A stretch of DNA of 39,032 nt from a virus. Taxonomy: Duplodnaviria > Heunggongvirae > Uroviricota > Caudoviricetes. The stretch covers positions 1 through 39,032 of the IMG/VR virus record IMGVR_UViG_649989948_000008. One strand, 5' to 3'. Below, piece by piece: positions 26,363 to 26,993 of the stretch. Position numbers and translations under genes: made by a program. Below the pieces are notes generated by a model. That model worked only from the letters and a program-made list of their open reading frames with translations. It did not search any database and was not told the origin of the DNA. How positions within the stretch are numbered: position 1 is the stretch's first letter; the number at the start of each line of letters is the position of its first letter.

Positions 26363-26440
26363 CACAGCGTTGAGCGGTCTGGTTTATGTTAGCGGAGTCT
26401 TAATCTGGGTGATTAAAAGGCCAAACCGCTCAACGCTGTG
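26363..26440. repeat. long inverted repeat (16-bp perfect arms, 46-nt loop) abutting the 3' end of tRNA-Ser
   Basis: CACAGCGTTGAGCGGT at 26363-26378 and ACCGCTCAACGCTGTG at 26425-26440. Confidence 0.5.
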
Positions 26441-26442
26441 TC

Positions 26443-26529
26443 TGGCGGAGAGTAATGGAATCGAACCATCATCGCTTGCGCAATGGGACGGTTTTCAAGA
26501 CCGCTTGAGCACCATGCTCCCTACTCTCC
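26443..26529 (-). tRNA. tRNA-Ser (anticodon UGA), type II with long variable arm
   Basis: Hand-folded 87 nt: acceptor GGAGAGT/ACTCTCC, anticodon loop CTTGAAA, T-loop GGTTCGATTCC, encoded 3' CCA. Confidence 0.7.
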
Positions 26530-26746
26530 AATTGTTGTGGTTACCGGTACTGATCTCCGGCTTAGCGACCCCGGCTACTGACTGCATTGCAGTGTGTGAA
26601 CTCGCCTCGTGTGTCGCTGGGGCATTTCTTTCCGCGCATCAGTCTGCGCATCAACCACAACGAAAAGAGCACTGTATGACGTTTGCACGGACTTACGCTT
26701 AAAACAGGGCAGTCTCGGCGGTTTTCAATGCTCTTTCCTGTTGTGT

Positions 26747-26822
26747 TGGTGCCGGTTAACGGACTCGAACCGCTGACATCCTGCTTACAAGGCAGGCGCT
26801 CTACCAACTGAGCTAAACCGGC
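26747..26822 (-). tRNA. tRNA-Thr (anticodon UGU)
   Basis: 76 nt: acceptor GCCGGTT/AACCGGC, D-arm GCTCAGTTGGTAGAGC, anticodon loop CTTGTAA, T-loop TTCGAGT, 3' CCA. Confidence 0.8.
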
Positions 26823-26826
26823 AATT

Positions 26827-26913
26827 TGGTGGGGAGTGATGGAGTCGAACCACCCGAGTCGCAATGACAGTAGATTTACAGTCTACACCGCTACCTCTAC
26901 GGACTAACTCCCC
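26827..26913 (-). tRNA. tRNA-Tyr (anticodon GUA), type II
   Basis: 87 nt: acceptor GGGGAGT/ACTCCCC, anticodon stem-loop GTAGA-CTGTAAA-TCTAC, long variable arm, T-loop TTCGACT, 3' CCA. Confidence 0.75.
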
Positions 26914-26918
26914 TAAAT

Positions 26919-26993
26919 TGGCGATGGTGGGTGGATTCGAACCACCGACCAGTTGGTTAACAGCCAACTGCTCTACCGCTGAGCTACACCATC
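26919..26993 (-). tRNA. tRNA-Asn (anticodon GUU)
   Basis: 75 nt: acceptor GATGGTG/CACCATC, anticodon stem-loop GTTGG-CTGTTAA-CCAAC, T-loop TTCGAAT, 3' CCA. Confidence 0.8.

Follow-up and report, generated by a model that had tools for sequence, protein, structure and literature searches.

Spacers of a phage-plasmid tRNA cluster may form a modular RNA system of long hairpins and STnc100-like domains

The locus described here is a transfer RNA (tRNA) cluster in a 39,032-nt stretch of DNA (the window; positions 1 to 39,032 of the IMG/VR record IMGVR_UViG_649989948_000008), which is an SSU5-like phage-plasmid of Escherichia coli. Four tRNA genes, for Asn, Tyr, Thr and Ser, lie on its minus strand (hereafter the tRNA strand) with gaps of 5, 4 and 217 nt between them. 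The original prediction, read from the letters alone, had singled out this cluster for the 217-nt gap before tRNA-Ser and for a long inverted repeat beside that gene, and ARAGORN returns the same four genes and the same gap, all on the minus strand. We found that the gap is one unit, made of a long hairpin (H) and a 128-nt four-way-junction domain that resembles a cloverleaf (CL), and that the inverted repeat (H-f) belongs to the same hairpin family. With a little more confidence than doubt, we read the minus strand from about 27730 down to 26264 as one non-coding RNA operon in which tRNA genes alternate with these two kinds of structured-RNA module. The features of the cluster, in the order of the tRNA strand, are:

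26919-26993, minus strand: tRNA-Asn (GTT); ARAGORN; Rfam tRNA model, 75.5 bits
26827-26913, minus strand: tRNA-Tyr (GTA), type II, missing from some relatives; ARAGORN; Rfam tRNA model, 41.6 bits
26747-26822, minus strand: tRNA-Thr (TGT), CCA encoded; ARAGORN; Rfam, 74.9 bits
26656-26745, minus strand: spacer hairpin H; folds and alignment of the bulged family
26534-26661, minus strand: cloverleaf-like domain CL; fold, conserved blocks, Rfam matches of alleles at the same site, closing-stem changes
26443-26529, minus strand: tRNA-Ser (TGA), CCA encoded; ARAGORN; Rfam tRNA-Sec model, 44.6 bits
26363-26440, minus strand: hairpin H-f, the inverted repeat; repeat search, fold, relatives, family alignment
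26264-26285, minus strand: intrinsic terminator of the operon; sequence inspection, conserved in relatives

Relatives were collected by scanning IMG/VR with the 3' half of the window's tRNA-Ser, which gave 59 loci, and the annotated Cyrano, D6, P7, P1, CMS-2020a and three Klebsiella phage-plasmids were added to them. Escherichia phage CMS-2020a and phage Cyrano, 96-98% identical over the region, are among the best DNA matches of the window, as are ~110-kb plasmids of E. coli and Shigella. The 217-nt spacer is 100% identical in many ~110-kb plasmids of E. coli, Shigella and E. fergusonii, at least 20 plasmids in all; NZ_CP019013 and NZ_CP103659 are examples of an identical plasmid in E. coli.

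The tRNA-Asn, tRNA-Thr and tRNA-Tyr genes pass the Rfam tRNA model (RF00005, gathering score 29 bits). The type-II tRNA-Ser is an ARAGORN call only, with a tRNA-Sec match near the threshold of that model (47 bits). It has a D-stem of 4-5 bp with a tiny D-loop, a long variable arm and G73, and compensatory changes in its acceptor and D stems distinguish the Klebsiella versions from those of E. coli. The tRNA-Ser(UGA) gene is identical across SSU5-like and P1-like phages (26443-26529 in the window, 3024-3110 in the P7 locus L003); it carries no annotation in the P7 record, and P1 itself lacks the gene. At the equivalent site of 68 loci (L001-L068) the tRNA set is combinatorial, with Asn or Arg(tct) first and with or without Tyr and Thr, which suggests frequent exchange of cassettes between P1-like and SSU5-like phage-plasmids. 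Also, the D6 record (locus L002, MF356679.1, 3024-3729) annotates tRNA-Ser, -Thr and -Asn on the plus strand while both ARAGORN and Rfam find these genes on the minus strand, probably an error in the deposited annotation.

In the spacer, H starts 1 nt past the CCA of tRNA-Thr and has a 19-bp stem with one bulged A (CACAAC-A-GGAAAGAGCAUUG ... CAGUGCUCUUUUC-GUUGUG) around a variable interior of 50 nt. The CL domain overlaps it, its initial 6 nt being the 3' end of H. It consists of a 9-bp closing stem (GUUGUGGUU/AACCACAAC) followed by a GAU junction, hairpin a (GCGCA-GACUGA-UGCGC), a long variable arm with the tip CUGCA-AUG-CAG, and hairpin b (GCCGG-AGAUCAGUA-CCGGU), which abuts the closing stem. 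Two small palindromes noticed earlier find their place in this fold: GCGCA-n6-TGCGC (26634-26649) is hairpin a, and ACTGCA-T-TGCAGT (26581-26593) is the tip of the variable arm. Neither ARAGORN nor Rfam at E<=10, in a 1-kb search, gives a tRNA-like signal in 26530-26746, which bears out the earlier remark that the spacer has no recognisable T-loop. The idea of a degenerate tRNA had to be abandoned, as there is no ARAGORN call and no match to the tRNA clan at E<=10, and the stems show compensatory change instead of decay. When the spacer and the inverted repeat were scanned for known RNA families (Rfam gathering and E-value scans), only miRNA-type hairpin noise was returned, and C4 and DicF gave no match.

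The inverted repeat H-f begins 2 nt past the CCA of tRNA-Ser. It had been described as a perfect 16-bp repeat with a 46-nt loop, 3' of tRNA-Ser, which is true in the sense of the tRNA strand; the 16 bp are the core of a 20-bp repeat whose arms (26363-26382 and 26421-26440) are 95% complementary, with 38 nt between them. The stem has one U-G wobble on the tRNA strand and encloses an inner 8-bp stem-loop. The RNA fold of the repeat has an energy of -41.2 kcal/mol (z = -9.5), which none of 200 shuffles reaches. Absence from relatives had been named as the finding that would speak against the repeat; it is conserved in the SSU5-like elements of both E. coli and Klebsiella, with a diverged form in P7/D6-type phages. 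We rejected H-f as an intrinsic terminator, the sequence after its stem (AUAGACAAUUACGG) having no U-tract. About 80 nt beyond it lies a clean intrinsic terminator, a GGGGC-UUCG-GCCCC stem-loop (GGGGCUUCGGCCCC) followed by U6, so H-f would lie within the transcript and would not be its terminator. The consensus terminator scan did not list the 26264-26285 element.

In the original prediction the spacer and the inverted repeat were two unconnected peculiarities. Both are real, but they are not unconnected, since the repeat and the initial 90 nt of the spacer are one hairpin family. The window holds three copies, the spacer H, H-f and a copy further upstream (H-c, described below), and none elsewhere in its 39 kb. 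Every hairpin with the base motif was collected from 161 oriented loci, which gave 63 distinct arm pairs in about ten interior classes, the interiors being unrelated from class to class, and the arms were aligned alone (20 nt, an artificial GAAA linker, 20 nt). In IMG/VR the H pattern occurs in 33 contigs only, most of them already among the loci of the scans for tRNA-Ser and for the tag described below, and 11 of them new. The elements were gathered with a folding-energy filter on the tRNA strand, which inflates the percentages of pairing and the G-U excess that follow: pairing is 96.2% in the 34 unbulged members, compared with 81% in column shuffles and ~33% with slid partners; in the 16 bulged members, the spacer H among them, it is 97%; and non-Watson-Crick positions are 68 G-U on the tRNA strand against 17 A-C. 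Both sides change in 12 of the 20 pairs of the unbulged set, with 94 compensated cells against 22 in shuffles, and 6 of the 19 pairs of the bulged set are compensated. Of 50 elements, 46 fold more stably on the tRNA strand. The G-U excess and the greater stability of that strand point to an RNA-level structure on the tRNA strand. A boxA-like signal (UGCUCUU) in some H 3' arms was judged coincidental; it is found in a subset of H types and is always base-paired.

The stem sequence itself is also conserved (CACAACGUUGAG / CUCAACGUUGUG, with the palindrome CAACGUUG within). The hairpins might act as DNA, the inverted repeats being cassette boundaries or recombination sites at which tRNA genes and RNA modules are swapped between P1-like and SSU5-like elements, with the RNA folds as a by-product. 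This conservation across otherwise unrelated phages, with a palindrome CAACGTTG in each arm, would suit such a role, as would the combinatorial site (Asn or Arg(tct), with or without Tyr and Thr, 0-3 H-CL units), the equal stability of H-f on both strands and a tyrosine recombinase gene (22967-24070) that lies 2.3 kb from the tRNA and hairpin site. We consider a DNA-level role unlikely, since each G-U of the tRNA strand is an A-C mismatch in the other strand or in a cruciform (68 against 17), and pairing that is kept by compensatory change while the sequence drifts is expected of RNA stems, not of a site recognised by a protein. An integron attC site was rejected, because the arms do not fit the RYYYAAC/GTTRRRY core sequences, and we know of no recombinase for H-type sites.

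The content of the site varies by whole modules. In the 68 loci there are 38 distinct spacers of 8-705 nt, built of recurring blocks, with a ~200-nt module in 0-3 copies, sometimes as two or three tandem units. In the repeating unit the base of H is CACAAC...GUUGUG, and CL opens with the same GUUGUG and closes with ...CACAAC. The placement is strict: every H stands either 1-2 nt past an encoded CCA or right behind the closing stem of a CL, and every CL stands after an H. That the spacer unit and the inverted repeat form one modular RNA system is the view to which we incline, if not strongly. The variable copy number, the Cyrano gap of 8 nt without any H-CL unit, and the lack of relation between alleles in the interiors of both H and CL could also be what is left of duplicated or selfish mini-elements, hitch-hiking in a non-essential gap and functionless now. 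Debris of this kind is rather improbable, given that compensatory substitutions maintain the stems across lineages, that identical 217-nt spacers occur in at least 20 plasmids and that related CL alleles belong to an expressed small RNA (sRNA) family (PMC12370729).

In P1 (locus L009), the genes plp and upl are annotated opposite two H hairpins and an STnc100-like cloverleaf of 33.4 bits (7729-7822, 8005-8083 and 8078-8201, that is, ~69728-70200 of the record). These two genes would be the precedent for reading the equivalent stretch as small proteins encoded on the opposite strand, which we find very hard to believe. The P1 frames lie over H hairpins and a CL, neither P7 nor D6 has such genes annotated, and spacer length and content vary by whole RNA modules. 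In the window a protein-coding spacer was rejected, as no open reading frame (ORF) of 40 aa or more lies wholly within the spacer. The P1 plp and upl genes may themselves be mis-annotations of a structured-RNA region.

The CL architecture is constant across 53 versions of 58-164 nt: a 9-bp closing stem, a junction of 2-3 nt ((G/A)AU in the longer versions, AA in the 58-nt versions), hairpin a, zero to several variable arms, and hairpin b (CCGG...CCGG), which is stacked directly on the closing stem. This connectivity is tRNA-like, without T-loop and without CCA. The closing stem shows compensatory changes, U-A to C-G among them, an observation biased by the selection of versions. The interiors are unrelated between alleles. 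A single covariance model for CL was rejected, because hairpins a and b stand in different registers by allele type. The minimum-free-energy fold of the window CL has the four-way-junction layout of STnc100 (RF02076), as compared with the Rfam consensus and with the fold of STnc100 from the Shiga toxin (Stx) phage PA28. Alleles of CL match the STnc100 model itself over positions 31-147, with the same architecture: that of locus L067 at 50.3 bits, above the gathering score of 47 bits, those of L061 at 40.1 bits, D6 at 39.6 bits and P1 at 33.4 bits, and that of L018 at 41.3 bits, which lies in a Thr-Ser spacer after an H 97% identical to the window's. From its position, its architecture and the blocks that it shares with intermediate alleles, the window CL is most likely a divergent allele of the STnc100/PasD-type prophage sRNA. 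Of the other contents once imagined for the spacer, a small RNA has thereby gained ground by homology, since alleles at the same site, with the same closing stem and architecture, match STnc100, one of them above the gathering score, and a processing signal is plausible for the hairpins, by inference.

STnc100 is a prophage sRNA that was detected by RT-PCR in vesicle RNA, and in Stx phages it lies just downstream of stx2 (PMC12370729). It is reportedly related to PasD, an sRNA with targets from RIL-seq (bioRxiv 10.64898/2026.05.13.724894). Pas sRNAs are without exception described as ending in a 3' terminator stem-loop with a U-tract, taken as the likely Hfq-binding site. We found that the Stx phages with STnc100 also have tRNA genes upstream, and that in PA28 the Rfam model begins within the 3' arm of an upstream hairpin, which would fit a 5' end made by cutting of the stem. 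The STnc100/PasD RNAs of Stx- and Fels-1-type lambdoid prophages share with CL the layout of the four-way-junction core, in which the closing stem (..UGGUG / CACCA..) is followed by an AAU junction, by hairpin a and variable arm(s), and by a hairpin, CCGGG-AGGCA-CCCGG, that abuts the closing stem, as well as a hairpin just upstream and a site downstream of phage tRNA genes. They differ in that the window CL stands between two tRNA genes, without a terminator of its own and too diverged for detection, behind a 19-bp H of distinct conserved sequence, and in a phage-plasmid, not a lambdoid prophage.

Upstream of tRNA-Asn, the putative operon has a leader with four further features:

27644-27679, minus strand: frame resembling the tag of a transfer-messenger RNA (tmRNA); permissive Rfam scan, pattern search, relatives
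27458-27536, minus strand: long hairpin H0; stem scan, relatives
27260-27381, minus strand: H-c, the third copy of H; motif search, stem scan
27202-27265, minus strand: small domain after H-c closed by GUUGUG...CACAAC, a minimal CL-like form; 64-nt class, conserved in 20 or more loci

The stem of H-c has 20-23 bp (CACAACGUUGAGGCCAUUAC ... GUAGUGGCCUCAACGUUGUG). The stem of H0, of 20-21 bp (GUAACAGAAUGGGCGGUUGG.../...CCGCCCAUCCUGUUAC), differs in sequence from the H family and is conserved in the Klebsiella relatives. A putative promoter of the operon lies near 27730 on the minus strand, and its TATAAG box is conserved in relatives. Overlapping it, just upstream of the TATAAG box, a palindrome GATAAGTAtttacTTACTTATC (~27741-27762, minus strand) looks like a repressor operator by analogy with the C1 operator at P1 Pban; according to the P1 annotation, the equivalent tRNAs are controlled by the C1 repressor at the ban operator. 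Also, a perfect hairpin GGAGGGAACAUUCAUGUUCCCUCC (27542-27566, minus strand) can equally be read as a Shine-Dalgarno sequence with a mini-ORF, MFPPMK and stop; relatives have unrelated hairpins at this site, and L046 has none.

The tag frame at the head of the operon reads GCA AAC GAA GAA GUC UAU CUG GCA GUA GCC UAA UAA, that is, ANEEVYLAVA and two stops. The same frame encodes ANDNQYLAVA and a stop in Klebsiella SSU5-like elements, and ANDDLMMVAA or ANDDLMMAAA in P1, P7 and D6. The P1 copy (L009, NC_005856, 6945-6977; ANDDLMMVAA and a stop) has no start codon and has an in-frame stop 7 codons upstream. Further copies are found in L006, L043, L079, L084 and L112. The flanks are like those of genuine proteobacterial tmRNAs (CAUAAAU, then GCAAACGA...GCCUAA.AAGCC). 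In a pattern search that allowed 7-34 nt between GCAAACGA and GCCUAANAAGCC, all IMG/VR matches have a 19-nt gap (10 codons) except one chance match of 47 nt and L146, a 9-codon copy (ANDNFALAA) in which ARAGORN calls no tmRNA. Among the 19-nt-gap matches, one (L121/L145) is a genuine permuted tmRNA and the remainder comprise at least 10 phage-type peptide versions; L146 apart, the phage-type copies have 10 codons and a stop. In the bacterial genome collection the same pattern returned chance matches of all lengths, genuine tmRNAs of Legionella and Sideroxyarcus, which ARAGORN calls, and phage-type copies in Escherichia, Kluyvera and Buttiauxella, which it does not call.

Like tmRNA (ssrA, two-piece and DS6A forms), the leader element has a resume codon, GCA, a tag of 10 codons that begins AN(D/E)... 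and ends in A-A or V-A, one or two stops, an A/U-rich upstream context and structured RNA downstream; unlike it, the element has no detectable tRNA-like domain, and the Rfam models stay below threshold. The permuted tmRNA model gives 33.4 bits in L112 and 24.1 bits in P1, the weak Rfam tmRNA matches in the window have 14-15 bits (best 14.9), and no Rfam tmRNA model reaches its gathering score (47-84 bits). A tRNA-like domain for the tag was not found, ARAGORN calling no tmRNA in the window, P1, P7 or D6, nor, in tmRNA mode, at the phage-type tags of L079, L084, L112 and the Enterobacteriaceae isolates. Candidates for the missing half were rejected one after another: none of the four operon tRNAs has G3:U70, a T-arm match in L112 is part of an ordinary tRNA, and a UUCAACU motif in the H0 loop is not conserved in Klebsiella. 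The H-f loop CCAGAUUAAGACU is complementary to AGUCUAUCUGG of the tag, a match that we attribute to chance, as there is no co-variation and Cyrano has the same tag with another loop. In L112, whose tag is ANDDVVLMAA and two stops, two odd tRNA-like genes flank the tag element (11041-11112 and 11404-11482); one, an Ala(cgc) call, aligns to the tRNA-Sec model without the anticodon arm, and the second is a Cys(aca) call. A 2014 survey that searched the phages and plasmids of RefSeq (November 2012 download) exhaustively for tmRNA found ssrA only in mycobacteriophages and does not list P1; its authors additionally name Bacillus phage G and DS6A, the latter a mycobacteriophage with the tRNA-like domain only (PMC4131195).

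On these sequence features we regard the leader element as an unrecognised tmRNA-derived element. It is possible, but doubtful, that the tag of P1-like and SSU5-like elements is a functional tmRNA-derived messenger domain without its tRNA-like half, which would use a partner RNA (host tmRNA with SmpB, or a cloverleaf of the operon) to tag the products of stalled ribosomes with a degron specific to the phage or would serve as a decoy that disables host trans-translation, with H and CL as processing or partner parts. A broader proposal, that the whole locus is a tmRNA-derived system in which the leader is the tag-coding domain, the cloverleaf and hairpin modules or another RNA are the tRNA-like partner, and the phage re-tags the products of stalled ribosomes with a degron of its own, seems improbable to us. 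Across SSU5-like and P1-like elements the tag frame has at least 10 versions, with tmRNA-like flanks and a constant 19-nt gap where chance matches have all lengths; the weak Rfam tmRNA matches and the tRNA-like connectivity of CL, with hairpin b stacked on the closing stem, fall in with this proposal. It would need, however, a tRNA-like domain, a G3:U70 acceptor and a partner ending in CCA, all of which were looked for and not found; no tmRNA model reaches its gathering score, and CL has neither T-loop nor CCA. Besides, the final codons of the tag form covarying pairs with a segment upstream, so that some of the 'synonymous' changes are equally readable as RNA-pairing changes, and the argument for translation is weakened.

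When the whole window was scanned for stems of 16 pairs or more, few Watson-Crick-rich stems of ~20 bp came out. Three lie in the RNA operon (starting at 26363, 27260 and 27458), and the sole other is an AT-rich near-perfect palindrome at 34795-34851 with a stem of 17-21 bp (CCTGCTTC.GTATATAT...ATATATAC.GAAGCAGG), unrelated to H. The neighbouring ORFs encode an integrase, a helix-turn-helix protein, a glutaredoxin, an ATP-dependent ligase and unknowns. Integron, CRISPR and retron readings were rejected, as no reverse transcriptase, Cas protein or IntI turned up among them.

A possible explanation for the locus may be the following. One minus-strand transcript would run from the putative promoter near 27730 to the terminator at 26264-26285, co-transcription being suggested by the positions of these two signals. 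The H stems (19-23 bp, near-perfect) may be cleavage sites for an RNase III-type activity on double-stranded RNA, protective trailer hairpins, or both; H-f with 20 bp, the spacer H with 19 bp and a bulge, and H-c with 20-23 bp have the size suited to RNase III, ~20 bp of near-uninterrupted double-stranded RNA. Cutting at H would detach the terminator from tRNA-Ser, part tRNA-Thr from the module and create the 5' end of CL, and an RNase P cut at tRNA-Ser would give its 3' side. The freed CL RNA of ~130 nt could then act as a base-pairing sRNA, with its specificity in the variable arm, as the STnc100/PasD relatives do. We place the explanation as a whole, with a co-transcribed operon, H as processing or trailer stems and CL as an STnc100/PasD-like sRNA, just on the favourable side of an even chance.

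Processing stems for RNase III are known from rRNA operons and from the early RNA of phage T7. As in H, these are near-perfect stems of about two turns, with variable apical regions, between functional RNAs of one transcript; H differs in that it conserves its stem sequence besides pairing, and its cleavage is a prediction. A further parallel for CL is the pair of stable RNAs of the phage T4 tRNA cluster, species 1 and 2 (rnaC/rnaD), of which RNase III cleaves species 1 RNA. Compared by description only, these are structured RNAs of ~120-140 nt in a phage tRNA cluster, co-transcribed with it and matured by host RNases, as is proposed for CL; unlike the modules described here, they are single-copy and non-modular, with no flanking family of 20-bp hairpins. 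To our knowledge, no stem 1-2 nt past an encoded CCA, as in H, is part of the known 3' processing of E. coli tRNAs. In the literature searched we found no earlier description of these hairpins and no P1 transcriptome data.

Several points weigh against this explanation. The window CL has no STnc100 match at E<=10 (gathering score 47 bits), and it has neither its own terminator nor a U-tail, since it ends 4 nt before tRNA-Ser and the only terminator is the one at 26264-26285. H-f has practically the same stability on both strands in the window (-40.1 and -41.3 kcal/mol), the energy filter mentioned above favours the tRNA strand in the whole H collection, and a purely structural role does not explain why the H stem sequence is conserved. 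The H-CL unit is dispensable for tRNA expression, because the Cyrano spacer does without it. Finally, what the sequences themselves show is the anatomy, the family membership, the conservation, the compensatory changes, the strand bias and the modular variation in copy number; co-transcription, the nucleases involved and the regulatory role are inferred.

Phage tRNA clusters are usually read as tRNAs between which the spacers mean nothing. In this cluster the spacers amount to a toolbox of RNA modules, conserved and exchangeable, that are common to two unrelated and clinically common families of phage-plasmids, P1-like and SSU5-like. The finding links the poorly understood STnc100/PasD prophage sRNAs to tRNA operons and suggests how their 5' ends might arise, and it casts doubt on two long-standing gene annotations of P1, plp and upl. 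If the tag proves functional, it would give mobile elements a new means of disturbing ribosome rescue and proteolysis. The locus also offers a concrete and cheap test bed for the biogenesis of sRNAs from tRNA precursors.

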